From the NCBI GenBank assembly GCA_025964635.1, contig JAOPYP010000247.1, positions 1 to 33,932 on the forward strand: a stretch of 33,932 nucleotides of DNA, written 5' to 3'. The notes under the pieces are model-generated. The model saw only the letters and a program-made list of their open reading frames with translations, was not told where the DNA came from and did not search any database. Made by a program: the position numbers and the translations under genes. The stretch's first letter is position 1. Every line of letters begins with the position of its first letter. Positions 3,370-27,150 of the stretch are shown here, piece by piece. The stretch comes from Actinomycetes bacterium. GTDB taxonomy: Bacteria; Actinomycetota; Actinomycetes; Streptosporangiales; Streptosporangiaceae.

Positions 3370-4476
3370 TCATCGCGGGATAAAGGCCATTCCGTGCGGG
3401 TTGTTCATGCCGACGATGATCGGGGTGATCTGCCCGCTGCCGAGGCTGACCGTGCCGACGAAGCTGATGATGGTGGAGTCATTCGGCGCCGCCGTGAGCG
3501 GAGTGCCGGTGACCCACAGATTCGAGCAGGCCGAGAACACCCCGGAGGCGTTGTCCGCGATGATCATGCAGCCATTCGGCGACGTCGGCCACACCGTGTC
3601 ATCCACCGGGGTTCCCACCGGCAGGACCTTGACCTTCTGCGAAGCCGTCCCCGGGTGGCTGATGAACAGCAGCTGCTGGTCCCCCTGGGAGTCCAGCACC
3701 AGATTGCCCTGGGGGTCGATCATCATGGAGTCCGGGTCGGTGAGGGGCATGGTGATGCTCGTGACCGGAGGATTGAGGGTGGTCCCCGTCGCGCCGCCCT
3801 TCAGCACCGGGGTCAGGGTGGCCTTGGTCCCGGAGATCGTGACCTTGTCGAGGGCCGGGAACACGTTCTTCCCGGCGCTGTTGAGCGTGGGGTTGGACGC
3901 GTCGATGAACGCCATCCCGTTCAGGAACTGGATGTCGTCGAAGCCTCCGCCGTGCGGCGTCTTCGGCAGCGTGATCTGCGTAGGGGTGCTGCTGGACGGG
4001 GTGATGGTGTAGAGCCGGGGGTTTCCGTCCTCGTTGCACATCACCCACATCTGGCCGGTGCCCGGGTCCATCCGCATGCCGTCGGTGTGGCACCCGGTCC
4101 CGGCCGCCGGACCGCCGATGCTCCACGTCTTCACCAGCGCGCCGCTGGTGGTGTACTCGCCGATCGTGCTGGACTTGTTGTCCAGGCCGTCCTTGGCCGT
4201 GATGTTCTGCCAGCCGATCCAGATCTTGCCGCCGGCGTAGACCACGCTGTCCGGATGGTTGGCCTTCGACGTAGCCGGGATGATCAGGCAGACCTTGTAC
4301 CCGCTAAGGGCGGCCACGTTCGAGACCTGCGAGGCCGATTGACAGCCGCTGCTGTTCGCTGAGGTGGTCGTGGCCGTGCCGCCCGAGCTGGCTGAGCTGC
4401 TCGAGCAGGCCGCGACCGCGAGCCCCAGGGCCGCCGTGGCCGCCGCGGCCTTGGTGAGCGTGCTGAACGTCTTCAC
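3370..4476 (-). CDS. Secreted lipoprotein of unknown function (repeat-rich, beta-propeller-like by composition)
   Basis: Track ORF 3370..4521 trimmed to the GTG at 4474-4476, which has an AAGAGG RBS 7 nt upstream. Lipobox ALGLAVAAC followed by a Ser-rich linker. Third-position GC is high throughout. No catalytic motif recognised. Confidence 0.75.
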   Translation of the reverse strand: MKTFSTLTKAAAATAALGLAVAACSSSSASSGGTATTTSANSSGCQSASQVSNVAALSGYKVCLIIPATSKANHPDSVVYAGGKIWIGWQNITAKDGLDNKSSTIGEYTTSGALVKTWSIGGPAAGTGCHTDGMRMDPGTGQMWVMCNEDGNPRLYTITPSSSTPTQITLPKTPHGGGFDDIQFLNGMAFIDASNPTLNSAGKNVFPALDKVTISGTKATLTPVLKGGATGTTLNPPVTSITMPLTDPDSMMIDPQGNLVLDSQGDQQLLFISHPGTASQKVKVLPVGTPVDDTVWPTSPNGCMIIADNASGVFSACSNLWVTGTPLTAAPNDSTIISFVGTVSLGSGQITPIIVGMNNPHGMAFIPR

Positions 4477-4510
4477 CGGAATACCTCTTTCTAGTGCCCG
4501 GCGTTCTGCT

Positions 4511-4548
4511 GAGGAGGCCAATACGTCGTGGTGCCGAGGAGGCCAATA
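4511..4548. repeat. Perfect 13-bp direct repeat GAGGAGGCCAATA x2 (4511-4523 and 4536-4548)
   Basis: Read directly from the sequence; the two copies are 25 bp apart start to start. They lie in the promoter region of the minus-strand lipoprotein gene and the far-upstream region of pstB. Confidence 0.9.
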
Positions 4549-4772
4549 AGTTCTGGGCAGGCTGAACTAGCCTCAAAGCCACGGTGTTTTCGCGGGCCGC
4601 TTTACTTATTACGTGGTCAGGTGTGGCCTGCCCGAGGCGGAAGGGGTTTATTGTGGGCCGCGCTTCCAGGGCAGCCAGTTACCGGGCTGCCCTGTGGCCA
4701 CGAGTCTTACGACACAACATGGCCGGCAGGTGAAATCCGGGACCGCTGTAGGTAAAGAAAGTACATCTAACT

Positions 4773-4789
4773 GCTACATATTCTGTAGA
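4773..4789. promoter_or_regulatory. BlaI-type operator-like palindrome GCTACAT-ATT-CTGTAGA
   Basis: The right arm is identical and the left arm matches 5/7 to the TCTACAG-N3-CTGTAGA sites at 18618, 18638 and 5870. It sits in a conspicuous A/T-rich patch (4745-4795) about 125 bp upstream of the first possible pstB start. Confidence 0.45.
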
Positions 4790-4915
4790 GGTTGCCCGAT
4801 CGAGCTGGCCAGCAGTAGTACCTGCTCCGTTAGCCTGGCGTTCGCTCAGGGTTTACCCGGGCTATTCGCCTGGGCCCGCACGGTGTCCTATTATTCGCGG
4901 TACCTGACGGCCGCG

Positions 4916-5806
4916 ATGGGGCTAGCGCAGACTGTGCGCCGTTCTGTTTTTCCGCGTGGTTTTTCTGGGAGGTTCGCGGTGGCAATCCAGCCCGGTCCCG
5001 AGGATCTGGTCCCGGTGGGCGGCGGCCCGCCTGGCCCCCGGCCAGACGGTGCCGCCGCCTTGGTGGCCTCCGGGCTGAACGCCTGGTTTGGCTCCCTCCA
5101 GGTGCTGAAGGACATTAACCTGATCGCTCAGGCGCAGTCGGTGACGGCTCTCATCGGCCCTTCCGGAAGCGGCAAGTCCACCCTGATCCGCTGCCTCAAC
5201 CGGATGCACGAGGAGGTCCGGGGCGCGAGGGTCACCGGCACGGTGCTCTTCGACGGCACCGATATCTACGCGCCCGGCACCGACCCGGTGGAAGTCCGCC
5301 GCCGCATCGGGATGGTCTTCCAGCGGCCCACCCCGTTCCCCACGATGAGCGTCCTGGACAACGCCGTGGCGGGATTGAAGCTCGGGGAGAGGCTGGGCAA
5401 GAGTGAGCTGCGCGCCCGCGGCGAGGATGCCCTCCGCAGAGCGGGCCTCTGGGACGAGGTCAAGGACCGGCTCGGCGACTCCGGGGCGGCGCTCTCCGGT
5501 GGCCAGCAGCAACGGCTGTGCATTGCCCGGGCGCTCGCCGTCCAGCCCGAGATCCTGCTCATGGACGAGCCCGCCTCCGCGCTCGACCCGGGGTCCACCC
5601 GCCGGATCGAGGAGCTGATCGAGAAGCTCAAGATCGAGTACACCGTGGTCATCGTCACCCACAACATGCAGCAGGCCACCCGGGTGGCCTCGCAGACCGT
5701 GTTCATGCTCGACGGCCAGGTCGTGGAAACCGGGCCCACCGATGTGATCTTCAGCCATCCGTCCGACAAGCGGACCGAGGACTACGTGCACGGGCGCTTC
5801 GGCTGA
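4916..5806 (+). CDS. pstB: Phosphate ABC transporter ATP-binding protein PstB (orphan, divergent from pstSCA)
   Basis: Track ORF 4613..5806 trimmed; the first 101 codons have poor codon usage. Candidate starts are ATG 4916 or GTG 5015. Walker [10 protein letters not shown], then [23 protein letters not shown], signature [14 protein letters not shown], Walker [13 protein letters not shown]-loop VTHNMQQA and C-terminal EDYVHGRFG, all characteristic of PstB. Confidence 0.85.
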
Positions 5807-5869
5807 GCCACGGCCCGGGGCCACGCACCTCCCCGGGTCACGGAACGTCCGTATAGTGTCGAGGGATGT

Positions 5870-5886
5870 TCTACAGGATCCGTAGA
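5870..5886. promoter_or_regulatory. BlaI-type operator-like palindrome TCTACAGGATCCGTAGA upstream of dedA paralog 1
   Basis: Matches the site at 18638-18654 at 15 of 17 positions. It lies 20 bp upstream of the GTG start at 5907 and just downstream of a TATAGT -10-like hexamer (5852-5857). Confidence 0.6.
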
Positions 5887-5906
5887 AGCAGGCGGGGGCC
5901 GGCCTG

Positions 5907-6530
5907 GTGAGTACCAGCCACCTCATCACCAGCTACGGCTACTGGGCCGTGTTCGTCCTCGTCGGGCTGGAGAGCCTGGGCATCCCGCTGCCCGGTGAGA
6001 CCGCCCTGATCATCGCGGGGGCCTACGCCGGCAGCACCCACAACCTGTCTCCCTGGGCCATCTTCGCCGTTGCCTCCGCGGCGGCGATCGTCGGCGACAA
6101 CATCGGCTTCTGGATCGGCGGCACGGGTGGCTACCGGCTGGCCCGCGCCTACGGGCCCAAGATCCGGCTGGACGAGCGGAAGCTGAAGATCGCCCGGTAC
6201 CTGTTCGACACCTACGGCCCTAAGGTCGTGTTCTTCGGCCGGTTCACGGCCCTGCTGCGCACCTACGCCGCGTTCCTGGCCGGCGCCAGCCGGATGAGCT
6301 GGCGCCGGTTCCTGCCCGCCAACGCCGCGGGCGGGATCGTGTGGGCCGGGATCTACACGACCGCGGCGTACCTCGCGGGTGACACGCTGCGCCGCGTGTC
6401 CGGCACCATCAGCGTGGTGCTCACCGTCGCCGGGGTGCTGGCCATCGTGGCCGGGGGGCTGTTCATCCGCCGTCAGATGCGCAAGCTCGCCCCCCGGGCC
6501 GAGGCCGCCTACCCCGGCCCGCTCGACTAA
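5907..6530 (+). CDS. dedA: DedA family membrane protein (paralog 1)
   Basis: Full track ORF with a GTG start. N-terminus ITSYGYWAVFVLVGLESLGIPLPGE and FFGRFTALLRTYAAFLAG match DedA/SNARE-associated family hallmarks. Alignable with the second DedA at 16854..17489. Confidence 0.85.
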   Translation: MSTSHLITSYGYWAVFVLVGLESLGIPLPGETALIIAGAYAGSTHNLSPWAIFAVASAAAIVGDNIGFWIGGTGGYRLARAYGPKIRLDERKLKIARYLFDTYGPKVVFFGRFTALLRTYAAFLAGASRMSWRRFLPANAAGGIVWAGIYTTAAYLAGDTLRRVSGTISVVLTVAGVLAIVAGGLFIRRQMRKLAPRAEAAYPGPLD

Positions 6531-6636: not shown

Positions 6637-7323
6637 ATGCGAGTTCTGGTCGTCGAGGATGAGGTGCGTACCGCGGCCTTGCTGAGGCGGGGGCTGTCCG
6701 AGGCCGGGTACAGCGTGGACGTCGCGGTGGATGGCCCGGATGCCGTGTGGCGGGCCAGCGAGTTCAGCTATGACGCCGTGGTGCTGGACGTCATGCTGCC
6801 CGGCTACGACGGCCTGGAAGTGTGCCGCAGGCTGCGCGGCCGCGGCCGCTGGGCCCCGGTGCTGATGCTGACCGCCCGGGACGACCTGGCCGCCCGGGTC
6901 CGCGGCCTGGATTCCGGAGCCGATGACTACCTGGCCAAGCCGTTCAGCTTCGATGAGCTCTTCGCCCGGCTCAGGGCCCTGATCCGGCGGGGCGCGCCCG
7001 AGCGGCCGACCCTGGTGCAATGCGGTGACCTGCGGCTGGATCCCGCTACCCGGCGGGTGTGGCGCGGCGACATAGAACTGGCGCTGTCTCCGAAGGAGTT
7101 CGCGCTGCTGGAGTTGTTCCTCCGGCATCCAGGCCACGTGCTGACCCGCACCCGGATCCTGGAGCACGTCTGGGACTTCTCCTACGACGGTGGCTCTAAC
7201 GTCGTCGACCAGTACGTCGGCTACCTGCGGCGCAAGATCGACCGGCCGTTCGGGGTCACTCAGCTGGAGACGGTCCGCGGAGTGGGCTACCGGCTGCGGG
7301 ACGCCCCGCCCGGGACGGGCTGA
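6637..7323 (+). CDS. OmpR/PhoB-family response regulator (pair 1)
   Basis: Full track ORF. Receiver domain (VVEDE, VLDVMLPGYDG, LMLTAR, KPF) plus winged-helix output (LSPKEFALLELFLRHPGHVLTR, VWDFSYDGGSNVVDQYVGYLRRKID, VRGVGYRL). Confidence 0.92.
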   Translation: MRVLVVEDEVRTAALLRRGLSEAGYSVDVAVDGPDAVWRASEFSYDAVVLDVMLPGYDGLEVCRRLRGRGRWAPVLMLTARDDLAARVRGLDSGADDYLAKPFSFDELFARLRALIRRGAPERPTLVQCGDLRLDPATRRVWRGDIELALSPKEFALLELFLRHPGHVLTRTRILEHVWDFSYDGGSNVVDQYVGYLRRKIDRPFGVTQLETVRGVGYRLRDAPPGTG

Positions 7324-7330
7324 GCCGGCC

Positions 7331-8752
7331 ATGTCGCTGCGGACGCGGCTCGCCCTGATCTTCGCGCTCGGCAGTGGCGCGCTGGTGACGGTGGCCGGGC
7401 TGGCCTTCGTGTGGCAGCTGCACACCTCGCTCAGCGCCGCGCTGGACAGCGAGCTGCGGGTGCGTGCGACCGCGCTGGCGGCCCAGCTGGCCACGGGGTC
7501 GCTGCCGACGTTCCCCCCGGCCAGCAGCAATCAGGCCGGCGGCCATGCCGGCCAGTCTCCCGCAGCGGAACAGATCAGCCAGGTTCTCAGGCCTGGCCGC
7601 GGCCCGCTGTACTCGTCGGGCCTGGAAGGCGCCGCGCCGCTGCTCTCCCCGGCCCAGCTCCGCCGCGCGGCCACGGGCCCGCTCACCGTCACCACCGTCA
7701 TCCACGGGGAGCGGCTGCGGCTGCTGGCCAGCGAGGTCCGCTTCCGCCGGCAACCGGCCATCACCGTGGTCGCGGTGCCGACCGACGTCGCTGACACCGC
7801 GCTGGCGCGGGCCCGCCTGGCCCTGGTGATCGCGGCCCCCCTCGCCGTGCTCACCGCCGGGCTGGGCGGCTGGCTGCTGACCGGTGCGGCCTTGCATCCG
7901 GTGGCCCGCATGCGGCGGCGGCTGGAGGAGATCACCGCGCGGGACACGGGCGCCCGGCTGCCGGTCCCGGGGACCGGCGACGAGATCGCCGCCCTGGCCG
8001 TCACCATGAACGGGCTGCTCGACCGGCTTCAGCAGGCCCTGGCCCGGCAGCGCGCGTTCACCGCCGATGCCGGTCACGAGCTGCGCACACCGCTGACCGC
8101 GCTCAAGGCCGAGCTGGAACTGGCGGCCCGGCCGGGCCGGTCACGCGATGCGCTGGCCGCCGCCGTGGGGGCGGCCGCCAGCGACACCGACCGGCTGATC
8201 CGGCTGGCCGAGGATCTCCTGCTGCTGGCGGGCACCGACGAAGGCACGGCTTCCCTGGTCCGGGAAAGGACCGACATCTCCAGCGAGCTGCACGCGGCCG
8301 CGCGCCGGTTCGCGACCGCGGCCGCCGGCCGGGAGGTGGCCATCTCCGTGCAGGCGAACGGGCCGCTGCCGGTCAGCGCCGACCCGGGCCGGATGCGGCA
8401 GGTGCTCGACAACCTCCTCGGCAACGCCCTCCGGCACGCCCCGCCCGGAAGCACGGTCGAGATGACCGGCCGTCCCGCCCCGGCCGTCAGGCCGGGCGGT
8501 GGGCAGCGGCGGGTGGTCGCGGTCGAGGTCCGCGATCACGGGCCGGGCTTCCCGCCCGACTTCCTCCCGCAGGCGTTCGGGCGGTTCCAGCGGGCCGACC
8601 GGGCCCGCAGCCGGGCCGATGGTGGCACGGGCCTGGGACTGGCCATCGTGGCGTCCATCGTCCGCGCGCACGGGGGGACGGCGATCGCGGGCAACGACCC
8701 AGGCGGAGGAGCCCGGATCCGGATCGAACTCCCCCTCGATTCAGGGCAGTGA
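7331..8752 (+). CDS. Sensor histidine kinase (pair 1)
   Basis: Track ORF 7190..8752 trimmed to the ATG at 7331, 8 nt after the RR stop. Two TM segments flank an extracytoplasmic domain of about 130 aa. HAMP region, H-box AGHELRTPL, N-box DNLLGNALRHAP, G1 DHGPGF and G2 GTGLGLAIV. Confidence 0.9.
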   Translation: MSLRTRLALIFALGSGALVTVAGLAFVWQLHTSLSAALDSELRVRATALAAQLATGSLPTFPPASSNQAGGHAGQSPAAEQISQVLRPGRGPLYSSGLEGAAPLLSPAQLRRAATGPLTVTTVIHGERLRLLASEVRFRRQPAITVVAVPTDVADTALARARLALVIAAPLAVLTAGLGGWLLTGAALHPVARMRRRLEEITARDTGARLPVPGTGDEIAALAVTMNGLLDRLQQALARQRAFTADAGHELRTPLTALKAELELAARPGRSRDALAAAVGAAASDTDRLIRLAEDLLLLAGTDEGTASLVRERTDISSELHAAARRFATAAAGREVAISVQANGPLPVSADPGRMRQVLDNLLGNALRHAPPGSTVEMTGRPAPAVRPGGGQRRVVAVEVRDHGPGFPPDFLPQAFGRFQRADRARSRADGGTGLGLAIVASIVRAHGGTAIAGNDPGGGARIRIELPLDSGQ

Positions 8753-9312: not shown

Positions 9313-11979
9313 TCAGAGGTCCCGCATGATGTCGGCGGCGGGCCGGCGTATCGCGCGGATGACGCTGACCCCGGTAGCCACGACGGCCCCGCAGGTCACG
9401 CCGCCCAGAGCGGCCAGATAGGCCCAGGGGACGAACAGGTGCGGTGGCGGCGGGTCGAACACCCCGGTCAGGATCTTCGTGATGATGAACGACAGTGCCC
9501 AGCCGGACAGCACACCCAGCAGGGCGCCGCCGATCGTCACGAAGACGGCCTCGCTCCACACGAACGAGGCGAGCTGGCGGGATCGTGCGCCCAGTGCGGC
9601 GGCGATCGCGAACGTGCGGCGCCGCTCGACCAGCCCGAGCGCCAGCACCAGGCCAGATGCCGCGGCCGCCAGGAGGAAGGCGAACGCCAGCTCCAGCCGG
9701 GTCAGGCCGGACAGGTCCAGCGCGGTCAGGCCGGACAGCGTGACCCTGAGCTGGGTGTTGATGTCCTGGACGACCGCCCCGGACGCCGGGCCCAGGATCC
9801 GCCGGACCTCCCGGGCCACCGCCGGGGGAGAGCCATTGGCCCGGACGAGCAGGTCCTGGTACGCCGGCGATCCGGTGGCCCGGGCCACATAAGAAGCGTT
9901 AGCGATGAAAAAGGAGTCCTTGGGTGCCGTGGGGAACTCCCGGACCACGCCCGCATAGTGGAAGGGAACGATGTGGTAGGTGTGATCCCGGGCGGACTGC
10001 ATCCGCAGCCGGAGCAGGTCACCCGGCCGGAGCTGGTAGTTGACCACGGTCTCCTGCGAGACCAGCACCGCGTCGGGATGCGCGGCCAGGGTGGCGAGCA
10101 CCCCGGCGGCGTTGCCGCCCTGGAAGAAGGCATCTGACATCGGCGTGGCCGTGCCGATGCGCGTGGGGTTGATCCCGTACAGGTCCTGCAGGTCGTTCCC
10201 GACGTACGCGAACCGGTGCATCATCGGCTGCACCGCGGCGACGCCGTTCAGCCGGCTGGTCGCGGCCAGCGCCCCCGGGGGCAGGCCGGTCGCGGCGGTG
10301 GTGGCGGCCGTCACATCCGCCCCGTTCGTGAGCTGGGCGTCGACCCGCGACTGCTGGGAGTAGGTCGTGTTGAAGATCGCCGTGGACACCGCGAACGAGG
10401 CCGTCAGCCCGATGATCATGAGACCGCGGGACAGCAGCCGCCGCTGCCGCGACATGGAGGCGGCCACCACCCCGGCCAGTTCACCCGCCAGCGGCCGGGT
10501 GGCCCGGGCCAGCAGGGGCCGCCCGCGGCTGAGGACCGCGGTGGAGATCCGCCAGGACAGCAGCGCCGCCCCGACCCAGAGCGCCAGCGGCGCCAGGAAC
10601 GTCGAGTAGTTCACCGAGATCGTCGCGACGCCTTCGGGGGCCAGCACGACCTGATACCCGCTCCGGACCGACTGCCAGAAAATGACCCCGGCCAGCGCCA
10701 GCAGCCAGACGTCCAGGTACAGCCGGGCCCACAGCGGGCGGCGGCCCCGCCCGACGACCCCGCGCGCGCCGCGTCCCGACAGGGAGCGGGCGTCCTTCCA
10801 CGCGGGGAGGCCGATGGTCAGCGCGGCCAGGATCAGCCCGGCGAGCGCCGCCACCGCGGCCCAGGCGACCGCCTGCCCCAGCGTCGAGCCGAATCGCGAG
10901 GCGCCGAACGTGAGCCGGCTGGCCAGTACGGCACCGGCCAGGCCGATGCCCGAACCGAGCACGCCGACCAGCAGGGCCTCGGCCCCGGCCAGCCCCACGA
11001 TGGTGCGTGGCGAGGCGCCCCGGATCCGCAGCAGCGCCTGCTCCCGGCGCCGCCGTTCCCCGCCCGCCGCGCCGATGACGGAGGTGAGCAGCGCGGCGAG
11101 GACCGCACCCGGCAGCCCGAGGAACAGGAACAGCAGTTCCGCGTACACCGCGTCGCCGCGGGCCGCGTCGAGCTGGGCGCTCAGGTTGTCACCGACGAGA
11201 CCGCCGCCGACCAGCTTCGCCTCGAGGTTCTTGGCCCGGGCCATGACATCCGCGAAGGCCGTCGCGGGATCGGGGGACAGGGCGGGCGACAGCTTGACGT
11301 GGTACTGGGTGGTCACCGCCGCGGGCTGGGTGCGCTGCAGCGGCGCGAACGCGGCCTGCCACTGCGCGGCCGGGAGCAGCACGACGTTGTCCGGGGGCGC
11401 CTGCGGCGCCGCCCCCGGAACCACGCCGACCGCCTGGAACATCGAGTCCGCGGCGGGCAGGTCCACGATGCCCTGGACCGGGACCCGCAGCGGCGGCAGC
11501 CCCTGCCGCCCGATGCTGATGACCGAGCCGATGGTCGCATGCAGGTTCGCGGCGGTCTGCTGGGCGAGCAGCACCCCGCTGCGCGCCCCGAGCAGGGGCC
11601 GGATCTCGCCCGGGAAGGCGCCCGCGTAGCCGGGGGGCAGGCCGAGCACCTTGCCGGGCCCGGTGGTCTGGACCGTCCCGGCGGATGAGGCGGTGATCCC
11701 GGTCGTCGGGGCGTAGCCGACCGGCACGCTCCTGACGACGCCCGGGGCGGACGCGATCGTCCGGCCGGCCGTGGCCGGATTCGTGCCGGGCGCGAGCTGA
11801 ACCTGCCAGTCCACGATCACGCCCGCGACGGCCTGCTTGGTCATGTGCGCCTTGCTCGAGGCGAAGAACGCGCCGAGTGAGCCGAGCAGGGCCACGGCGA
11901 TGGCGACCCCGATCACGGCGCCCGCCAAACGGGCCGGCCTGCGCTTGAGCAGGCCCCACAGCCAGGTCAGAGCGTACAT
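9313..11979 (-). CDS. ABC transporter permease with two fused FtsX/MacB-type modules (about 10 TM, two large extracytoplasmic domains)
   Basis: Full track ORF, 888 aa. N-terminal TM, then an extracytoplasmic domain of about 250 aa, three TM, further TM segments, a second extracytoplasmic domain of about 230 aa, and a C-terminal three-TM FtsX module. The start overlaps the stop of the upstream ATPase by 13 nt. Confidence 0.85.
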   Translation of the reverse strand: MYALTWLWGLLKRRPARLAGAVIGVAIAVALLGSLGAFFASSKAHMTKQAVAGVIVDWQVQLAPGTNPATAGRTIASAPGVVRSVPVGYAPTTGITASSAGTVQTTGPGKVLGLPPGYAGAFPGEIRPLLGARSGVLLAQQTAANLHATIGSVISIGRQGLPPLRVPVQGIVDLPAADSMFQAVGVVPGAAPQAPPDNVVLLPAAQWQAAFAPLQRTQPAAVTTQYHVKLSPALSPDPATAFADVMARAKNLEAKLVGGGLVGDNLSAQLDAARGDAVYAELLFLFLGLPGAVLAALLTSVIGAAGGERRRREQALLRIRGASPRTIVGLAGAEALLVGVLGSGIGLAGAVLASRLTFGASRFGSTLGQAVAWAAVAALAGLILAALTIGLPAWKDARSLSGRGARGVVGRGRRPLWARLYLDVWLLALAGVIFWQSVRSGYQVVLAPEGVATISVNYSTFLAPLALWVGAALLSWRISTAVLSRGRPLLARATRPLAGELAGVVAASMSRQRRLLSRGLMIIGLTASFAVSTAIFNTTYSQQSRVDAQLTNGADVTAATTAATGLPPGALAATSRLNGVAAVQPMMHRFAYVGNDLQDLYGINPTRIGTATPMSDAFFQGGNAAGVLATLAAHPDAVLVSQETVVNYQLRPGDLLRLRMQSARDHTYHIVPFHYAGVVREFPTAPKDSFFIANASYVARATGSPAYQDLLVRANGSPPAVAREVRRILGPASGAVVQDINTQLRVTLSGLTALDLSGLTRLELAFAFLLAAAASGLVLALGLVERRRTFAIAAALGARSRQLASFVWSEAVFVTIGGALLGVLSGWALSFIITKILTGVFDPPPPHLFVPWAYLAALGGVTCGAVVATGVSVIRAIRRPAADIMRDL

Positions 11980-12641
11980 GAGGTTCCCGTCTGGAGAATT
12001 CGCTCGGTCATGGTCCAGCGCAGCGGCAGCCGGTCGGCCATGGCCTGGTCGTGGGTGGCGACGACCAGCGCCGTGCCGGCCGCCTCGACGTGGCGGAACA
12101 GCACGTCCATCAGCCCCGCCGCGGCGGCGCGGTCCAGCTGCCCGGTCGGCTCGTCGGCCAGGATCAGCCGTGGTTCACCCATCAGCGCCCGGGCCATGCC
12201 GGCCCGCTGGGCCTGGCCGCCGGAGATCTCCTCGGGCAGCTTCGACGCCACCTCGGCCAGCCCGAGCTGCTCGATTAGGGCCTGGGCCGCCGCCGCGGCC
12301 GTGGCCTCCGCGGTGCCCGCGAGCAGCGCCGGCAGGGCCACGTTCTCGGCCACCGTGAGCGGGGGCAGCAGGCTGGGTCCCTGGAAGGCCAGGGCGACCG
12401 GGCCGGGCCGGAGATCCTCGGCCCGTCCGAGGGCGGGCCACTCGATGACCCCGGCCGACGGCTGGTCCAGCGCCGCGATTATGTGCAGCAGGGACGTCTT
12501 GCCGCTGCCGGACGGCCCGACCAGGGCGATGCGGTCGCCCGCGCAGATCTCGAACGTCGCGTCCGCGACCGCGACCACCGGGCGCTGGCCGTTGCCGAAC
12601 TCGCGCCGGAGCCCCTTGGCGCGCACCAGGACGTCATTCAT
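11967..12641 (-). CDS. ABC transporter ATP-binding protein (LolD/MacB-NBD type), copy B
   Basis: Full track ORF. Walker A GPSGSGKTS, Q-loop AFQGPSL, signature ISGGQAQR, Walker B LILADEPTGQLD, H-loop VVATHD. Overlaps the neighbouring genes on both sides. Confidence 0.9.
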   Translation of the reverse strand: MNDVLVRAKGLRREFGNGQRPVVAVADATFEICAGDRIALVGPSGSGKTSLLHIIAALDQPSAGVIEWPALGRAEDLRPGPVALAFQGPSLLPPLTVAENVALPALLAGTAEATAAAAAQALIEQLGLAEVASKLPEEISGGQAQRAGMARALMGEPRLILADEPTGQLDRAAAAGLMDVLFRHVEAAGTALVVATHDQAMADRLPLRWTMTERILQTGTSCTL

Positions 12642-13398
12642 CGGTGACCCTTCCGTCGACCATCCGCACGATCCGGTCGGCGGACGCGGCTACCCGCTCG
12701 CTGTGCGTCACGACCAGGACCGCTTTCCCGCGGTCCGCCCGGCCGCGCAGCAGCTCCAGTACCTGGGCCTCGGCCTGCCGGTCCACCTCACCGGTGGGCT
12801 CGTCGGCCAGCAGGACCGGCGGATCGTTAGCCATGGCCACGGCCAGGCCGGCCCGGGCGCTTTCGCCGCCGGACAGGGTGCTCGGCCGGGCCGAGGCGCG
12901 CTCTCCCAGGCCCACGTCGTCGAGCAGGGTCTGCCCGTCGGGACGGCTCCGCCCACCAGCCCCGGGGCCGCTCCAGGTCCCGGACTCTGGGTGGCCTCGC
13001 GGCTCCCCCACCGGTTCCTTCACCACCGGTTCCTTCACCACCAGGGCCTGCGCGGCCCGGATGTTCTGCACCACGCTGAGGTGCTCCAGGAGGTTGCCCG
13101 ACTGCAGCAGCATGCCGATCCACCGGGCCCGCAGCCTGGCCCGGGTGGCTTCGTCCCGCCGGCTGATCCGCTGCCCGGCGATCGTCACGTGCCCGCCGTC
13201 CGGCTCGTCCAGCCCGGCCAGGCAGGCCAGCAGGGTCGACTTCCCGCTCCCGGACGGGCCGACCACGGCGACCATCTCGCCCGCGTGCACGCTGACGGAC
13301 ACCCCGCGCAGCGCGAAGGTCTCGTCGTCACCGATGTGGTAGAAGCGGTACAGTTCGCGCCCGTCGATCAGCGGCCGGGCCTGCGCGGTTACTTCCAC
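12634..13398 (-). CDS. ABC transporter ATP-binding protein (LolD/MacB-NBD type), copy A, with a low-complexity insertion
   Basis: Track ORF 12634..13704 trimmed to the GTG at 13396-13398 (VEVTAQARPLIDGRELYRFY...), which overlaps the lipoprotein stop by 10 nt. Walker [11 protein letters not shown]-loop LLQSGNL, signature LSGGESAR, Walker B VLLADEPTGEVD, H-loop VVTHS. Confidence 0.85.
   Translation of the reverse strand: MEVTAQARPLIDGRELYRFYHIGDDETFALRGVSVSVHAGEMVAVVGPSGSGKSTLLACLAGLDEPDGGHVTIAGQRISRRDEATRARLRARWIGMLLQSGNLLEHLSVVQNIRAAQALVVKEPVVKEPVGEPRGHPESGTWSGPGAGGRSRPDGQTLLDDVGLGERASARPSTLSGGESARAGLAVAMANDPPVLLADEPTGEVDRQAEAQVLELLRGRADRGKAVLVVTHSERVAASADRIVRMVDGRVTDE
13009..13042 (-). repeat. 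In-frame 15-bp tandem duplication (about 2.3 units) encoding VVKEP-VVKEP-V inside ATPase copy A
   Basis: The plus strand reads caccggttccttcac caccggttccttcac cacc. Confidence 0.9.
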
Positions 13399-14066
13399 CG
13401 GAAACTCTCCGAGACGATGCGCCACGGATCGACGTTGTCCGACCCGACCGCGGACGACAGGTCGATGACGGCCCCCCGTCCGTGGCGGTAGAGCTCGAAC
13501 CGCTCGATCACCAGCCGGTACTGCCGTCCGGTGACCCCGTTGGGCGGGCTGTTGACCTGGTAGATGGTCTCGACCGCCGGGCCGCCGGCCAGCTTCACGG
13601 CCCGCACCGACTGCAGCCGGAAGGCCAGGGACTTGGCCTTCAGCGCCGGGACGGCGGTGGCCTGGACGGAGTGGACCGTGGGCGGGGCGGCCAGGGGCAT
13701 CCACGCGACGCTGATGGAGTTCAGGTTGCTGGTGAACGTCGAGCTGGCCGGGGTGGTCTTCCGCGACCAGCCCTCGGGCACCTTGATCAGGAGATGCCCG
13801 GGTGGCGACTGGTAGGTCACGTAGACGGTGGTGTCCGGGATGTCCCCGGGAGGGTTGCTCTCGGCGGCGACCGGGGCCTGGGAACCGCCCGGGCCCGGGC
13901 TGGAGGTGCCCGGGGTGGAGGGGGCCGGGGCGGAGGCCTTGGTGGTCCCGGCCACGGGGGTGGCGGACCCGGAGTTCCCGCAGGCGGCCAGCGCGGAGAG
14001 GAGACCCGCTGCGGTCAGGGCGATGCCCAGCCGCCGGGCCATGGGTGGGTTGCTGCTATCAGGCAT
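13389..14066 (-). CDS. Lipoprotein of unknown function (operon partner of the ABC system)
   Basis: Full track ORF; an alternative ATG lies at 14042. Lipobox LLSALAAC followed by a Pro/Ser/Thr-rich linker and a globular domain of about 140 aa. Its stop overlaps the ATPase start. Confidence 0.75.
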   Translation of the reverse strand: MPDSSNPPMARRLGIALTAAGLLSALAACGNSGSATPVAGTTKASAPAPSTPGTSSPGPGGSQAPVAAESNPPGDIPDTTVYVTYQSPPGHLLIKVPEGWSRKTTPASSTFTSNLNSISVAWMPLAAPPTVHSVQATAVPALKAKSLAFRLQSVRAVKLAGGPAVETIYQVNSPPNGVTGRQYRLVIERFELYRHGRGAVIDLSSAVGSDNVDPWRIVSESFRWK

Positions 14067-14067
14067 G

Positions 14068-14085
14068 CCCCGGTTTTTACCGGGG
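14068..14085 (-). other. Short hairpin CCCCGG-TTTTTA-CCGGGG between HK2 and the lipoprotein gene
   Basis: Read directly: 6-bp GC stem with a 6-nt A/T loop, 2 nt upstream of the first possible lipoprotein ATG. Possible attenuator or processing site. Confidence 0.3.
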
Positions 14086-14122
14086 GGCAGATGAAGCGAC
14101 GATGAAGCCGCCGCGGCCCGGA

Positions 14123-15523
14123 TCAGCCGGAGGAGGCTGAGGCGGAACTCAGGCCGGCGCTGGGAACCGGCAGACGATCGAGGGCCAGGATCATGGTGAC
14201 CCGGGCCCCGCCCGGCACGTTCTCCGCGGTGGCCCTCCCGCCGTGCGCCCGCGCTACCGCCTGGACGATGGCCAGTCCCAGCCCGGCCCCAGAGTGCGAC
14301 GTGACGTCAGTCTCACCCCGGACGAACGCCTCGAACGCCCGGGGCAGCAGGGCATCGCCGAAACCCGGTCCGGTGTTCTCCATCCGGACCGTCGCCACCT
14401 CACCGGACACGGTCGCGCCGACCCGGATCAGCCCGCCGGTCTCCGGGCCGTAGCGGATCGCGTTGTCCAGCAGGTTGTCGAGCGCCTGGCGGACCCGCAT
14501 GGGATCGACCGGGATCTCCATCGCCGGGGCGGCGCACTCGATCCGCACCCCCCGGTCCTGGGCCCGTGCCCGGTGGCCCGCGCAGGCGCGGCTGAGCAGA
14601 TCCTGCAGGGAGGTGCTCATCCGGTGGATGCGGAAGCCGCCCGCCCGGGCCCGGGACAGCACCAGCAGGTCCTCGGCCAGCCGGGCCAGCCGGTCGGTCT
14701 CCTCTGACGCGCTCCGCAAGGCCGCTTCGAGCTCCCGGGCCTCCCGGGGACGCGACAAGGTCAGGTCCAGTTCGGCCTTCAGGATGCTGAGCGGCGTCCG
14801 CAGTTCGTGGCTCGCGTCATCGAGCACGCGCTGTTCCCGGTCTCTCGCGTCCTGCAGCCGGTCGAGGAGCGAGTTCAGGGTCCGGCCCAGCCGGGCGATC
14901 TCGTCTTTCGCGGCCGGTACCGGGAGTCGCCGGCTGGGCTGGGACACCGAGATCGCGGCGGCCTCCCGGCGCATGCGCTCGACGGGCCGCAAGGCGGCCC
15001 CGGCCAGCACCCAGGCGGCCAGGCAGGCCAGGGCCAGCGCAGCCGGGCCGGCCGTCTCCAGCAGCAGCCGGAGGCTGGCCAGCGTCTGGCTGACCTCGGT
15101 CATGGCCGACCCGACCACCACGAAGAGCGGCTGCCCCTCGGTGGTCGGCAGGACGAACGCCCGGAGGACGGGGCGGCCCGGCGCCGCGGGGATGGCCATG
15201 AACTGCGGTTCGCGGATGGCCCGCAGCGCCGCAGCGGACAGGGTCGGTCCCGCGAGCCCGCGGGATATCTGCACCTGGCCGGCGGGCGTGAGGATCTGGG
15301 TCAGGCCGCCAGCCCAGCTGTCGGGTGTATCCAGGCCGGCCGGCCCGGCCCGGCCGATCCCCGAGGCGATCACCTCCGCCCGGGTCCGCAGCGCGGAATC
15401 GGCGGTCCGGACCAGCTCCGCCTGCAGCCGCGCGTACACGAAGAAGCTGAGCGCCGCGAGGATCAGGGCGATGCTCGCCGCCGAGGCCAGCGTGACCCGG
15501 ACGCGGAGCGGGACGCGCCTCAT
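14123..15523 (-). CDS. Sensor histidine kinase (pair 2)
   Basis: Full track ORF. Its ATG overlaps the RR2 stop (ATGA). Same architecture as HK1: two TM segments, extracytoplasmic domain, HAMP, H-box ASHELRTPL, N-box DNLLDNAIRYGP, G2 GAGLGLAIV. Confidence 0.9.
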   Translation of the reverse strand: MRRVPLRVRVTLASAASIALILAALSFFVYARLQAELVRTADSALRTRAEVIASGIGRAGPAGLDTPDSWAGGLTQILTPAGQVQISRGLAGPTLSAAALRAIREPQFMAIPAAPGRPVLRAFVLPTTEGQPLFVVVGSAMTEVSQTLASLRLLLETAGPAALALACLAAWVLAGAALRPVERMRREAAAISVSQPSRRLPVPAAKDEIARLGRTLNSLLDRLQDARDREQRVLDDASHELRTPLSILKAELDLTLSRPREARELEAALRSASEETDRLARLAEDLLVLSRARAGGFRIHRMSTSLQDLLSRACAGHRARAQDRGVRIECAAPAMEIPVDPMRVRQALDNLLDNAIRYGPETGGLIRVGATVSGEVATVRMENTGPGFGDALLPRAFEAFVRGETDVTSHSGAGLGLAIVQAVARAHGGRATAENVPGGARVTMILALDRLPVPSAGLSSASASSG

Positions 15524-16188
15524 GCGCGGAGCCGGTAGCCCGCGCCGCGGATGGTCTCGATCGACTGCGTGCCGAAGGGCCGGTCGATCTTGTCCCGCAG
15601 GATCCGCACGTACACGTCCACGACGTTCGAGTCACCCGCGCCCGCGAAGTCCCAGACGTGCTCCAGGAATCTCGCCCGGGAGATCACCTGGGCCGGGTGC
15701 CGCATGAAGTACTCGAGGATGGCGAATTCCTTGGCCGCCAGGCTGATCGCCGTGGTTCCCCGGCAGACCGTGCGCGCCGCGGGGTCGAGCCGGAGGTCGC
15801 CCACCGCCAGGATGGCCGGCCGCTCGCCCGGGTTGCGCCGGACCAGGGCCCTGACCCGGGCCCGGAGTTCCTCGATGCTGAACGGCTTCGTGAGGTAGTC
15901 GTCGGCGCCGACGTCCAGGCCGCGCACCCGGTCCGGGACTGCCTCGCGGGCGGTCAGCATGAGGATCGGCATCCAGCGCGCCCGTTCCCGGAGCTGCCGG
16001 CAGACGTCGAAGCCGTCGATATCCGGCAGCCCGATGTCCAGGATGACCGCGTCGAAGTCGCACTCGCTGGCCATCCACACGGCCTCGTTGCCGGTGGCCT
16101 GGACGTCGACCGCGTACCCGTCCTCACGGAACGCCCGCTGCAGCAGGGTCGCCATCTTGGCTGTGTCCTCGACGACTAGGAGGCGCAC
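15520..16188 (-). CDS. OmpR/PhoB-family response regulator (pair 2)
   Basis: Track ORF 15520..16233 trimmed to the GTG at 16186-16188, which is preceded by GGGGAGG. Roughly half of its positions are identical to RR1 by eye ([37 protein letters not shown]). Confidence 0.9.
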
Positions 16189-16404
16189 AGCCGTGCCTCC
16201 CCTGCAGTGCGTCCGCGCACGGTACTCCCTCACTCTGGCCGGCAGGCGCTGAGGTCACCGAGCGTATACACGACGGCCCGTGCGCACGGCCAGATGCGCG
16301 GAGCGCCCTCCCACGTGACCCTAGGCCGGGAACATGAGAGATTCGTGAACGGCCTTCACGGCGCCCGCCTGACCCGGCCCGGATCCTCTCTAGGATCACC
16401 AGGT

Positions 16405-16920
16405 ATGCCAGAACCGACCGCCGGGGTCGTCGAGATCTTCACGGATGGTGCGTGCTCCCCCAATCCGGGCCCGGGCGGATGGGGAGCCATCCTGCGGTAT
16501 GGCCGCCATAGCAAGGAGATCTACGGCGGGGAGCCGGCGACCACGAACAACCGGATGGAAATCATGGCGGCCATCCAGGGGCTGGAGAGCCTGACCCGGC
16601 CGTCGGCCGTGCACGTGCACACCGACAGCGAGTACCTGCGCAAGGGCATCACGCAGTGGCTGCCCACCTGGAAGCGCAATGGCTGGCAGACCACGGAGAA
16701 GAAGCCAGTCAAGAACGCCGACCTGTGGATGCGGCTGGACTCAGCGACCCGGGACCACGCCGTTCAGTGGTTCTGGGTCAAGGGTCACGCGGGACATCCG
16801 GAAAACGAGCGCGCCGACGAGCTGGCCGGCCGTGGGTCCGCGGAAGCCGCCGCTCACGACCCGGCCGCGTGCCGCCCGGACGTGTCCGCCGCCGGCTCGG
16901 CCCGGCGCGCCCGCAGGTAA
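16405..16920 (+). CDS. rnhA: Ribonuclease HI
   Basis: Track ORF 16207..16920 trimmed to the ATG at 16405. Motifs [39 protein letters not shown] and [14 protein letters not shown]. The C-terminal tail overlaps the convergent dedA. Confidence 0.9.
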
Positions 16921-17489
16921 CGCCACACGGCGATGGCCAGGGCGATCACCACGATGGCGGCGATGATGTAGGTCGGGCCCTTGAAGCCGTCGACGATCGA
17001 GTGCCAGTTGGCGCCGACCGCGTAGCCGGCGTAGGCCAGTGCCGCCGTCCAGGGGATGCAGCCGATGGTGGTGTAGATCCCGAACCGGACCGGGTCCATG
17101 TCCGCGATGCCCGCGGGCAGCGAGATGAAGGTCCGGATCACGGGCAGCAGGCGGCCGATCAGGACGGCCCGCGGGCCGTAGCGATCGAACCACGCGTTGG
17201 CCCGGTCGAGTTCGTGCTCACGGATCCGCAGCCGGGCGCCCCACCGCCGCAGCGCGGGCTGGCCGCCGTAGCGGCCCACGGCCCAGGCGACGTAGCTGCC
17301 GACGACGTTACCGAGAACGCCGGCGATGATCACGCCGGCCAGGTTGAGTTTCGTTCCGGGGACGGCCCCGGCGGCCAGCGCGCCGCCGAACGTCATGATC
17401 AGCTCGGAGGGAATCGGGATGCACGCCGACTCCAGCAGCATGAGCAGGAAGATGGCGAGGTACCCGTACGTGGCGATCAGATGCTGCAT
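16854..17489 (-). CDS. dedA: DedA family membrane protein (paralog 2), translationally coupled to uppP
   Basis: Full track ORF. Motifs [25 protein letters not shown] and [18 protein letters not shown]. Its ATG overlaps the uppP TAA (TAATG at 17487-17491). Confidence 0.85.
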
Positions 17490-18505
17490 TACTTCACCAG
17501 GCCTAGGTAGAGGACGCTGGCCACGCCAGCGATCAGGCAGTAGACCCCGAACGGGGTGAGGGTGCGGGTCCGCAGGTACCGGAGAAGAAAGCGTACCGAC
17601 AGGTACGCCCCGACGCCGGACAGCACGCTGCCGAGCAGGATCTGGCCGCGGATCCCGCTGCCGAGCGGGCCGAGCAGGTCAGGGATCTTCAGTGCGCCGG
17701 CAGCCAGGATAACCGGAGTGGCCAGCAGGAAGGCGAACCGGGCCGCATCCTCGCGGGACAGCCCGCGCGCCATGCCGGCGACCATGGTGACCCCGTCCCG
17801 GCTGATGCCGGCCAGCAGGGCCAGGATCTGCGCGGAGCCCACCACGACCGCCCGCGGGTAGCCCATCTGGGCCAGCCGCCGGTCGGCCTGGATCGCCTCA
17901 GCCTGCTCCTGCTGGCGCACCGTGCGGTCCCCGGCGCGGGCATGGGCCCCCGCCGGGCTCCGGCCCGCGGCCACGAGTTCTGGCTCGCGGGCCTGGATCA
18001 GCCCGGGGTCCCGTTCCGCGGCGATCACGGCGTCGGCGGCCCGCGAGGCCCGGCTGCGGTAGCGTTCCCCGGCGATGAGGATGACGCCGTTCACCGCGAG
18101 GAAGATGCCCGCGATGATCGGCTTGCCGAAGATCACCCGGAACGCGTGCTCGAACAGCAGGCCGACGATCCCGACCGGGATGGTGGCCAGGATGATCATC
18201 CAGGCCAGCTTCTGGTCCTCGGTGCGCACCCGGCGGTCCCGTATCGAGCTGAAGAAGCCACCGATGATCCGGATCCAGTCCCGCCAGAAGTAGATGAGGA
18301 GCGCGATCGCGGTGGCCACGTGCAGCCCGACGATGAACGCGAGATAGGGCGACTCAGTGGCGGACACGTTGAGGTCGCGGGCCCAGGACCCGCCGATGAT
18401 GGCCGGGATCAGCACGTTGTGGCCGAGGCTGGAGACCGGGAACATCTCGGAGACGCCCTGGACGAGGCCGACCACGGCCGCCTCCAGGTAAGTCAGTTGT
18501 GTCAT
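17489..18505 (-). CDS. uppP: Undecaprenyl-diphosphate phosphatase (UppP/BacA)
   Basis: Track ORF 17489..19321 trimmed to the ATG at 18503-18505 (MTQLTYLEAAVVGLVQGVSEMFPVSSLGH...) with a GAAGGG RBS. Second signature LAGISRDGVTM. Carries a hydrophilic insertion of about 60 aa mid-protein. Confidence 0.9.
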   Translation of the reverse strand: MTQLTYLEAAVVGLVQGVSEMFPVSSLGHNVLIPAIIGGSWARDLNVSATESPYLAFIVGLHVATAIALLIYFWRDWIRIIGGFFSSIRDRRVRTEDQKLAWMIILATIPVGIVGLLFEHAFRVIFGKPIIAGIFLAVNGVILIAGERYRSRASRAADAVIAAERDPGLIQAREPELVAAGRSPAGAHARAGDRTVRQQEQAEAIQADRRLAQMGYPRAVVVGSAQILALLAGISRDGVTMVAGMARGLSREDAARFAFLLATPVILAAGALKIPDLLGPLGSGIRGQILLGSVLSGVGAYLSVRFLLRYLRTRTLTPFGVYCLIAGVASVLYLGLVK

Positions 18506-18617
18506 GCCAGGCCCTTCACTGAAAGATCGATGTGGTGCTCCACGTCCCCTCACCGGCGGGATGCGCTGCTCGGCTCGCCGGGCGGGAAGCCTGGGTGGCA
18601 TACTCGAAGGCGTGGGT

Positions 18618-18654
18618 TCTACAGTAACTGTAGAGCATCTACAGGATTTGTAGA
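18618..18654. promoter_or_regulatory. Tandem BlaI-type operators TCTACAGTAACTGTAGA and TCTACAGGATTTGTAGA
   Basis: Sites at 18618-18634 (perfect 7-bp arms) and 18638-18654 (6/7), with centres 20 bp apart, in the 177-bp divergent region between uppP and the blaI-like gene. They contain the TACA/TGTA half-sites typical of BlaI/MecI/CopY operators. Confidence 0.65.
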
Positions 18655-18682
18655 TCCTATCCGAGCATGAGAGGCGGCCGGC

Positions 18683-19141
18683 GTGGGTGGTGAAGGTCCC
18701 CGGCAGGCGCCCGGCGTCGAGCGGCGGGCGGCCGGGGCGCTGGAAGCCGAGATCCTCGCGATCCTGCGCGAGGCGGACGGCCCGCTCAGCCCCGGTGAGG
18801 TCCGCCAGCGGCTCACGCCCCGGCCGCCCGCGGACGAGGGACCCCAGGGAGAGCTGTCGTACAGCACGGTGGTGACCATCGTGTCCCGGCTGCACGCCAA
18901 GGGCCTGCTGGCCCGCCAGCGGGCCGGCCGCGGGTTCACCTACACGCCGCTCGACGACGCGAGCCTGGCCGCCAGCCGCATGGCCCAGGTGCTGCTCGGC
19001 AGCGAAAACGATCACGACGCGGTGCTCAGCCGGTTCGTATCCGGGCTTTCCAGCCGGGACGCCCGGCTCCTCCGCCAGCTGCTGGCGGGGGACACCGGCG
19101 CGGCCGGCGCCGATCCACGCCCGGCCGGGGAACAGGGGTAG
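18683..19141 (+). CDS. BlaI/MecI/CopY-family transcriptional repressor
   Basis: Full track ORF with a GTG start and a GAGAGG RBS. Winged-helix pattern LEAEILAILREADGPLSPGEVRQRL...LSYSTVVTIVSRLHAKGLLARQRAGRGFTYTPL plus a C-terminal helical dimerisation region. Confidence 0.85.
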   Translation: MGGEGPRQAPGVERRAAGALEAEILAILREADGPLSPGEVRQRLTPRPPADEGPQGELSYSTVVTIVSRLHAKGLLARQRAGRGFTYTPLDDASLAASRMAQVLLGSENDHDAVLSRFVSGLSSRDARLLRQLLAGDTGAAGADPRPAGEQG

Positions 19142-26331: not shown

Positions 26332-26862
26332 GATCGCCCTGCGTCTTCTGGCCAGCTGCGGAACCGCCCGCAGCTGAGGCCCGAAACAGATGTAGTTGAA
26401 AATCGTTCCACGGTACTGATACCCGTAATAGGCCGTTTCACGCTAAGCCGGACCGTATTGGCGGACAGGAATGTTCACGGCCGCGGCGCGCGGTGCAATT
26501 TGTCGTGCACATTGCAGTTATCGCCGCGGTCTTCTGGCCGCCAGTGGCCGTTGTCACGTGTCACCGGTCCCGGGAGCCCGCACCGTACCAGCCATTGCTG
26601 ATGGTTTCACCAGGTGACGTCAGTCCCACGCACCACACCCGTGCGGCCTGATGTCGCGGCCTCGCGGCCCGCGGGAGATCACCGGGAGGCCTCCGGTCGC
26701 GGGCGCACCACGACGTTGATCATGCCGCGGCCGGGTCCTCCCGGCACACCCGGGGTTATCGCGTGAATTACTCCAAATGCCATATCTGGTCACGCATTGG
26801 GGTGTAGTTTCGCACTCGCAGATGGCCTGATGTCTAAGTCACCGACAAGGGGACATTCTACT

Positions 26863-27150
26863 ATGAAGAATCATAGGTCGTTAAGGCACAGCATCATGCA
26901 GGCCGGCGGGCCGGCGGGCGGTGCTCACCGTGGCCCCTCGGCGGGAATTGCGCGCCTCCGGGTGATGCGCGGAATTCTCGTTCTCGCTCTCACCCTGGGC
27001 GGTGTGGCCGCCGTCGCGCTGGCCTGGCCAGGGCATGTCAGCTCAGGTCACGCCCGGGTCGCCGTACAGCACCGCGCTCACGGTCCGGCCCGTCCGGCCG
27101 GCCTTCGCCTGACGGTGAGCAAGTCCGTCCCCAGGCCCTGGATGTATTAG
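26863..27150 (+). CDS. Hypothetical small single-pass membrane protein with an in-frame TTA codon
   Basis: Part of track ORF 26797..27150, starting at the ATG at 26863 with an AAGGGGA RBS 9 nt upstream. TTA at 26881-26883. One TM segment (GILVLALTLGGVAAVALAW). Third-position GC is atypically low, so coding status is uncertain. Confidence 0.35.
   Translation: MKNHRSLRHSIMQAGGPAGGAHRGPSAGIARLRVMRGILVLALTLGGVAAVALAWPGHVSSGHARVAVQHRAHGPARPAGLRLTVSKSVPRPWMY

Follow-up and report, generated by a model that had tools for sequence, protein, structure and literature searches.

This analysis concerns a 17-bp palindrome at positions 5870-5886 of the contig JAOPYP010000247.1, a stretch of 33,932 nucleotides (nt) that we call the window. 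The palindrome stands in front of a gene for a DedA-family membrane protein and closely resembles a pair of palindromes beside a BlaI-type repressor gene farther along. The window is actinobacterial DNA of ~70% G+C, and its source and relatives are uncultured soil Streptosporangiaceae-like metagenome-assembled genomes (MAGs) or metagenome contigs. To the left of the palindrome lies pstB, encoding the ATPase of a phosphate ATP-binding cassette (ABC) transporter (4979-5806, + strand; TIGR00972, 351.8 bits against a cut-off of 343.2). To the right lies dedA1 (5907-6530, + strand), encoding a 207-residue membrane protein with a VTT/DedA domain (Pfam PF09335, 65 bits). The palindrome itself, TCTACA-GGATC-CGTAGA (TCTACAGGATCCGTAGA; no strand assigned), has a perfect left arm and a single mismatch in the right arm, a C for T beside the spacer. 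The original prediction, made from the letters of the window, had placed it 20 bp upstream of the GTG start of dedA1 and after a TATAGT hexamer. Both details hold: the GTG at 5907 opens the VTT/DedA-domain reading frame 20 nt past the palindrome, and TATAGT, a candidate −10 hexamer for dedA1, occupies 5852-5857 (+ strand), 12 nt before it.

Three more copies are found in the window, none assigned to a strand. Two form a tandem pair at 18618-18634 (TCTACA-GTAAC-TGTAGA, TCTACAGTAACTGTAGA) and 18638-18654 (TCTACA-GGATT-TGTAGA, TCTACAGGATTTGTAGA), separated by 3 nt with their centres 20 bp apart; we call them operators 1 and 2. The 5870-5886 copy differs from operator 2 at 2 of 17 positions, as had been claimed, and these are positions 11 and 12 only. 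The remaining copy, at 4773-4789 (GCTACA-TATTC-TGTAGA, GCTACATATTCTGTAGA), has a left arm mismatched at the outermost base only, and it went unmentioned in the original prediction, which also named neither the regulator nor uppP. It lies in a 458-nt intergenic region of lower G+C between pstB and a pstS-pstC-pstA operon on the − strand. No obvious −10 box stands beside it, and it is kept in one related locus (L028) with an altered spacer (GCTACATATCATGTAGA).

The four sites are statistically exceptional. A scan of the window with TCTACAGNNNCTGTAGA, allowing up to 3 mismatches, gave 4 matches against 0.27 expected, and 0 of 100 shuffles reached 4. A position weight matrix (PWM) scan had been suggested as a check on the original prediction. 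With a matrix trained only on sites from outside the window that have the 5-nt spacer (N5 sites), the scores were 33.6 bits (18638), 30.3 (18618), 28.5 (5870) and 25.0 (4773), and the fifth-best position in the window scored 1.5. Across random Markov-1 windows (n = 200), the top score was 4.7 on average and 20.2 at most.

The gene order places the tandem pair in the divergent region between two operons. Leftwards runs uppP (bacA; 17489-18505, − strand), for undecaprenyl-diphosphate phosphatase (PF02673, 231 bits; NF001395, 467.8 bits against a cut-off of 394), followed by dedA2 (16854-17489, − strand), for a UptA-like DedA protein (PF09335, 91.7 bits; NCBIfam UptA, 141.8 bits, under the cut-off of 250). 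The two genes overlap by 1 nt at 17489, at the uppP stop, and the same overlap is seen in the related loci L108-L113. The tandem sites therefore face uppP directly and dedA2 is the second gene of the operon, which corrects the earlier description. The claim that both DedA paralogs are tied to the palindrome stands as a direct link for dedA1; for dedA2, it stands only by way of the uppP-dedA2 operon. DedA1 and DedA2 are 31% identical in alignment, and both keep the arginine pair of the GRxxxxxR motif, carried in DedA1 by GRFTALLR (R112/R118). The matching residues of Bacillus subtilis UptA, R112 and R118, are reported to be important for its cellular function (PMC11474028).

Rightwards from the tandem pair run the genes of the regulator pair, whose domain content is established. 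The first (18683-19141, + strand) encodes a BlaI-like repressor with a Penicillinase_R winged helix (PF03965, 62 bits against a cut-off of 22.6). Its phmmer match, Mycobacterium tuberculosis BlaI (2G9W), is the closest solved structure (E 6e-5) and covers the C-terminal two thirds. The second (19146-20090, + strand) encodes a BlaR-like membrane zinc protease of 314 residues with the motif HEQAH (PF01435 Peptidase_M48, 49 bits). M48 was the only domain that Pfam and NCBIfam detected in the translation, with no penicillin-binding or beta-lactam-binding domain, and a search of the PDB with this protein gave no match. The protease gene directly follows blaI in all orthologous loci. The tandem sites fall 28-65 nt ahead of the blaI start, and the position of an operator before the repressor's own operon is conserved in L001 and L108-L113, as is operator 1. 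A block of invariant columns in the alignment of this region (A3), GTGGCATACT at 18595-18604 (+ strand), ends 13 nt before operator 1. CATACT on the + strand of this block is a candidate −10 box for blaI, which would place the operators just downstream of it. On the − strand, (G/C)AGTAT is a candidate −10 box for uppP, and operator 1 would then lie over its −35 region.

The comparisons are drawn from 114 fetched loci totalling 1.04 Mb, some of them near-duplicates, so that the counts are not all independent; in most genomes, ~20 kb around each site was inspected. The nearest locus, L001 (MAG CAWFAP010000005, 91-94% nucleotide identity), came from a synteny scan in which species-representative genomes were queried with the FtsX permease gene at the centre of the window, and it is the only one with wider synteny. 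Its blaI-uppP intergenic region has the same design with changed spacers (TCTACAGCAACTGTAGA and TCTACATTACTTGTAGA in window orientation). Since the spacers differ from those of the window, the conserved core is TCTACA-N5-TGTAGA. The cassette of dedA2 and uppP divergent from blaI and the protease gene recurs in at least 4 unrelated genomic contexts (L108, L109-L111, L112 and L113). In each case it comes with a pair of palindromes separated by exactly 3 nt, a gap kept in every ortholog, and with the invariant GTGGCATACT block 13 nt before them.

The palindrome in front of dedA1 leaves a footprint of its own. Orthologs of dedA1 at 60-99% identity were taken from 80 loci found by a metagenome scan, and 2 more came from long ENA contigs. 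Nine are close (86-100% protein identity; L028-L033, L035, L113 and L114), and all nine have TCTACA-N5-CGTAGA, with 12-13 nt between it and CGTATA(G/T)T on its upstream side and 14-71 nt between it and the predicted start, so that the −10 hexamer sits at a conserved distance from the operator. The invariant columns of their alignment (A2) are exactly this −10-like box, GTTCTACA and CGTAGAAGCA. The 5-nt spacers vary (GGATC, GAATT, AGATT and GAACT), and farther upstream of the box, the sequences diverge until they are unalignable. Only in the window, L028 and L029 does pstB stand before dedA1. The promoter-operator unit is kept without pstB in L030-L033, L035, L113 and L114. The upstream neighbour varies: L030 has a rhamnosidase fragment there, L113 a gene of LacI type and L114 one with an ABM domain. 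Since the unit persists under differing upstream genes, it belongs to dedA1 and not to pstB. The imperfect CGTAGA arm is itself conserved in 9/9 close orthologs, which suggests that a weaker operator has been selected at dedA1. Orthologs at 68-78% identity have either the N5 form or a 16-bp form with a 4-nt spacer (N4; TCTACA-N4-TGTAGA). At the N4 loci, the −10-like hexamer usually abuts the site, and the CGTAGA arm recurs among them.

Two further elements were seen around dedA1. A conserved strong hairpin, aacccggatgtgcacgggggccgcacatccgggtt, occupies the leader between operator and start codon, ~10-45 nt past the N4 site, in L034, L037, L045, L051, L053, L070, L072 and L096; it may be an attenuator or other leader element. 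L114 (9737-9753), L033 (678-694) and L035 (813-829) have, 227-255 nt upstream of the dedA1 operator, another palindrome that is weaker, TCTA(T/C)AGACAATATAGA. The L114 copy also precedes, by 24 nt, a divergent gene with an ABM domain (9420-9713, − strand), which is followed by a zf-CGNR gene.

Across the 1.04 Mb, 61 sites were found with at most 1 mismatch, 31 of them N4 and 30 N5, and the same scan gave 0 sites with N3, N6 or N7 spacers. Randomised sequence gives 0.1-0.3 sites per spacer class. Wherever the flanking genes were identified, the site precedes uppP, a PAP2 phosphatase gene, a gene of the dedA1 or dedA2 type, a ChrB_N gene or blaI, and it is with these families that the palindrome is specifically associated. 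Every uppP whose 5′ region is on the contig is preceded by a site (the window, L001, L036, L041, L044, L058, L082 and L108-L113), and every blaI whose 5′ region is on the contig has a palindrome upstream of its operon. The arrangements vary. In L058, a site is followed by uppP and dedA1 in one operon; in L044, uppP and dedA1 diverge from one site; and in L082 and L102, there are separate sites before dedA2-blaI-blaR, ChrB_N-dedA1 and uppP. In L088 (4970-6001), an N4 palindrome precedes a PAP2 gene (5021-5761), and a second palindrome separates this gene from a dedA1 ortholog. The PAP2 phosphatase (PF01569, 57 bits) has the PSGH and SRxxxxxHxxxD motifs. Since it has a palindrome of its own, an alternative type of undecaprenyl pyrophosphate (C55-PP) phosphatase would belong to the same putative regulon. 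The spacer follows the repressor clade: BlaI proteins at 75-93% identity go with N5 sites, and those at 49-56% (L036 and L082) go with N4 sites. The recognition-helix region L(S/A)Y(S/T)TVVTI(V/L)SRLH and the half-site are constant across the clades.

One locus, L113, repeats the whole design of the window, with an imperfect single site at dedA1 and, 4.2 kb away, a perfect tandem pair between uppP-dedA2 and blaI-blaR. Its 20.6 kb contain no other match at 2 mismatches or fewer. The three interpretive claims of the original prediction were that the palindrome is a shared operator, that it marks a regulon and did not arise by chance, and that its place after a −10-like box is that of a repressor site. 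All three are supported at the sequence level by the comparative data: the footprint at dedA1, its persistence without pstB, the specificity of the gene association and the recurrence of the design in L113. Loose linkage of dedA1 to the uppP-dedA2/blaI-blaR cassette, over ~2.4-12.7 kb, was also seen in L030 and L114 besides the window and L113, with a wholly different set of genes in between in each genome. In many N4-type loci, the palindrome is borne by a gene with a ChrB_N domain (PF20229) directly before dedA1 (L036, 4709-6004; L048, 95-763; L082 and L102, 4582-6004).

We consider it likely that the BlaI-family repressor encoded at 18683-19141 uses 5870-5886 as an operator and that this site is part of an undecaprenyl phosphate (C55-P) recycling regulon. 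In the mechanism that we propose, a repressor dimer would recognise the half-sites TCTACA and TGTAGA, whose centres are 11 bp apart in N5 sites and 10 bp apart in N4 sites, about one helical turn. The dedA1 operator starts 12 nt after TATA(G/T)T, so if that −10 assignment is correct, it would span the transcript from about +1 to about +20. The repressor would block initiation or promoter escape there, and because no terminator lies between pstB and dedA1, it would also obstruct read-through from pstB. At the tandem operators, the 20-bp centre spacing would let both be occupied cooperatively from the same side of the helix. By analogy with BlaR1 and MecR1, the 314-residue protease would respond to an envelope signal by inactivating the repressor proteolytically, and uppP, dedA2, dedA1 and the regulator genes would be derepressed together. 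The output would be the dephosphorylation of C55-PP, carried out by UppP or in some relatives by a PAP2 enzyme, together with return of C55-P by DedA-type proteins.

Several observations weigh against this interpretation. About 50 of 81 dedA1-type orthologs have no site within 260 nt upstream, as opposed to the 30 of 81 that do. Some of the siteless genes sit in an operon behind a site-bearing ChrB_N gene (L036, L048, L082 and L102), and the others are on short contigs or probably under different control. A consensus promoter scan called no sigma-70-type promoter at 4400-6100 or 18400-18800, and there is no recognisable −35 element at dedA1. The affinity of the dedA1 operator may be low because of its imperfect right arm. 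The assignment of DedA1 to carrier recycling is loosened by its NCBIfam UptA score of 55 bits, far under the cut-off of 250; its DedA score of 80 bits is also under the curated cut-off. dedA1 could be a dispensable member of the regulon, because the close relative L001 has lost it. Lastly, the PWM scores are partly circular, because the training sites were chosen by similarity to the window consensus.

The alternative that survives best is that the palindrome is a genuine operator for another factor, either a regulator encoded elsewhere or a neighbouring response regulator. We think this unlikely. The link to the adjacent BlaI is drawn from sequence, with the inspected regions limited as given above, and response regulator and histidine kinase genes (6637-8752, + strand) directly follow dedA1 in the window, as such a pair does in L028. 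OmpR-type regulators typically bind direct repeats, whereas the repeat here is inverted, and dedA1 in L030, L113 and L114 keeps its site with no two-component system adjacent. The adjacent response regulators were rejected as binders on these two grounds. The presence of the palindrome before every blaI operon whose 5′ region is on the contig also speaks for BlaI, as does the co-variation of spacer class with BlaI clade. The TACA/TGTA core contained in the palindrome is a BlaI-family signature, the conserved BlaI motif of Staphylococcus aureus (PMC4549145).

Less probable again is that the BlaI-like protein does bind at dedA1 and acts there positively or neutrally, as an activator or through an auxiliary looping site. 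The dedA1 site is indeed single and imperfect, and the 4773-4789 site, 1.1 kb upstream, could in principle pair with it. Set against this, the characterised BlaI, MecI and CopY proteins are repressors (PMC4549145, PMC13492132, PMC8457756). In both the N5 and N4 lineages, the site lies just downstream of, or abuts, the −10-like hexamer, which is the geometry of a repressor and not of an activator.

That the inverted repeat acts as RNA, as a weak terminator of pstB or a stabilising hairpin at the 3′ end, is very improbable. The original prediction had kept the terminator in view as an alternative, and the element does lie 64 nt past the pstB stop and could form a short stem. The results do not bear it out: there is no terminator-like call at 5806-5907 and no T-run, the next bases being AGCAGGCGGGGG, and the predicted minimum-energy fold of 5800-5910 leaves the arms unpaired with each other (z-score −0.62). 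An Rfam search of 4400-6000 at E ≤ 1 gave no match. The element is retained before dedA1 where pstB is missing, and identical elements lie between uppP and blaI, where the promoter regions diverge. The arm sequence itself is conserved, whereas a structural RNA would show compensatory change. As for chance similarity or the remnant of a dispersed repeat or mobile element with no regulatory role, AT-rich 6-mers are conspicuous by eye in DNA of 70% G+C, but this account is scarcely credible given the large excess over expectation, the strict spacer length and the fixed position relative to specific gene families. A miniature inverted-repeat transposable element or other dispersed repeat was rejected; there is no similarity beyond ~20 bp, and the flanks of the orthologs are unalignable.

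The rest of the window adds some context. Between the two operator-bearing loci is a module at 9313-16233, made up of an FtsX/MacB-type permease of 888 residues with two ABC ATPases (9313-13704, − strand) and a histidine kinase/response regulator pair (14123-16233, − strand). The module is also found in MAGs of Actinomycetota, Spirochaetota, Desulfobacteraceae and Eubacteriales, with permease identities of 48-97%. The remaining 26 loci of the synteny scan (L002-L027) share with the window only this ABC transporter and two-component module, and no palindrome was found in them. L001 is without window positions 4443-6384 (1.94 kb), the junction being at its 15581-15590. The missing stretch comprises the 5′ end of the gene at 3370-4521, the intergenic region, pstB, the 5870 operator and most of dedA1. 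A C-terminal dedA1 remnant of 43 residues is left. In L001 the flanking alignments overlap by ~10 bp; the gap is either a deletion in L001 or a misassembly. The G+C content of the window dips to 0.64-0.65 at 26001-27000 and 32001-33000 and is ~0.72 in the rest.

Given the outputs of the proposed regulon, a disturbed C55-P/C55-PP cycle is the most economical guess at the inducing signal. Agents that would cause such a disturbance include bacitracin-like compounds, which bind C55-PP, and amphomycin-like compounds, which bind C55-P (PMC11474028). More tentatively, the protease, which has almost no extracytoplasmic domain, might itself sense, inside the membrane, the state of the C55-P/C55-PP pool, or else respond to carrier-sequestering antibiotics, and then destroy the repressor; we offer this as a possibility and would not lean on it. 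If it is true, the sequestering agents could be bacitracin- or amphomycin-type compounds from soil neighbours, and Actinobacteria would have a proteolytic circuit dedicated to homeostasis of the lipid carrier and to resistance. The UppP or PAP2 phosphatases would then form one functional unit with two divergent DedA paralogs, and the response at dedA1, through its imperfect operator, would be graded and earlier. There would also be independent genomic evidence for a second DedA clade in C55-P recycling.

DedA proteins have only recently been linked to undecaprenyl phosphate flipping (PMC9876793), and why genomes carry several DedA paralogs of COG0586, and how these are regulated, is an open question (PMC9881974). 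Here, in a concrete and conserved instance, the sequence ties a BlaI/BlaR-type switch to a C55-PP phosphatase and two DedA paralogs. The main value of the 5870 site is that it would extend the regulon to the second, divergent DedA clade, and it predicts a part for the dedA1 clade in carrier recycling. With its defined 17-bp operator, defined regulator pair and few target genes, the system could be rebuilt in a Streptomyces or Escherichia coli reporter system, in which inducing signals could be screened for. Our literature search, which was incomplete, found no paper on BlaI-type control of uppP, PAP2 or dedA genes.

The system has the attributes of the BlaI/MecI/CopY family: a Penicillinase_R repressor, a TACA/TGTA inverted repeat, an operator at the repressor's own operon and an adjacent HExxH protease. 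To these we infer the addition of repressor binding at 5870-5886 and signal-induced proteolysis. It departs from canonical BlaR1/MecR1 systems in that the sensor has no penicillin-binding domain and the site-linked genes in the window are uppP, dedA1, dedA2, blaI and blaR, joined in relatives by PAP2 and ChrB_N genes. With 314 residues and M48 as its only domain, the BlaR-like protein falls in the non-canonical class, which makes up the majority of BlaR-like proteins (PMC13492132). The BlaI-BlaR1 and MecI-MecR1 systems of S. aureus and Bacillus licheniformis are alike in having a dimeric winged-helix repressor on TACA/TGTA inverted repeats (PMC4549145), paired operators and an adjacent gene for the cognate HExxH membrane protease. 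They differ in that their sensor has an extracellular penicillin-binding domain and their output is a beta-lactamase or PBP2a, whereas the output here would be lipid-carrier recycling genes. The staphylococcal dyad spacing is also tighter than the TACA-N5/N4-TGTA seen here.

Closer in taxonomy are BlaI/BlaR of M. tuberculosis (Rv1846c/Rv1845c) and their counterparts in Mycobacterium abscessus, which likewise have an actinobacterial Penicillinase_R repressor and an autoregulated operon. The reported targets of mycobacterial BlaI are blaC and ATP-synthase/energy-metabolism genes (PMC12565901, PMC13492132), not uppP or dedA, and the M. tuberculosis protein, compared here at the protein level, has low sequence identity to ours. 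Clostridioides difficile CenIR and Clostridium thermocellum BlaI_0696 are similar as BlaIR-family systems that have no beta-lactam sensor and control cell-envelope genes (PMC13492132). BlaI_0696 autoregulates, and its sites are inverted hexamers with 5 nt between them, set in ordered pairs for four protomers (PMC8457756). Both systems are from Firmicutes, the half-site differs (GTCTAT in place of TCTACA), and so do the regulons, Cwp6/CDR_0474 and unknown proteins, for which UppP, PAP2 or DedA genes are not reported. Other circuits that control C55-P and C55-PP recycling genes are the B. subtilis extracytoplasmic function (ECF) sigma regulons (bcrC and uptA), the Bce-type modules and BcrR-bcrABD of Enterococcus faecalis. 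They resemble the system described here in output, a C55-PP phosphatase and/or C55-P flippase induced under envelope stress. Their signalling is by ECF sigma/anti-sigma factors, a two-component system or a membrane-bound XRE activator, whereas here it would be by a BlaI-type repressor under proteolytic control.

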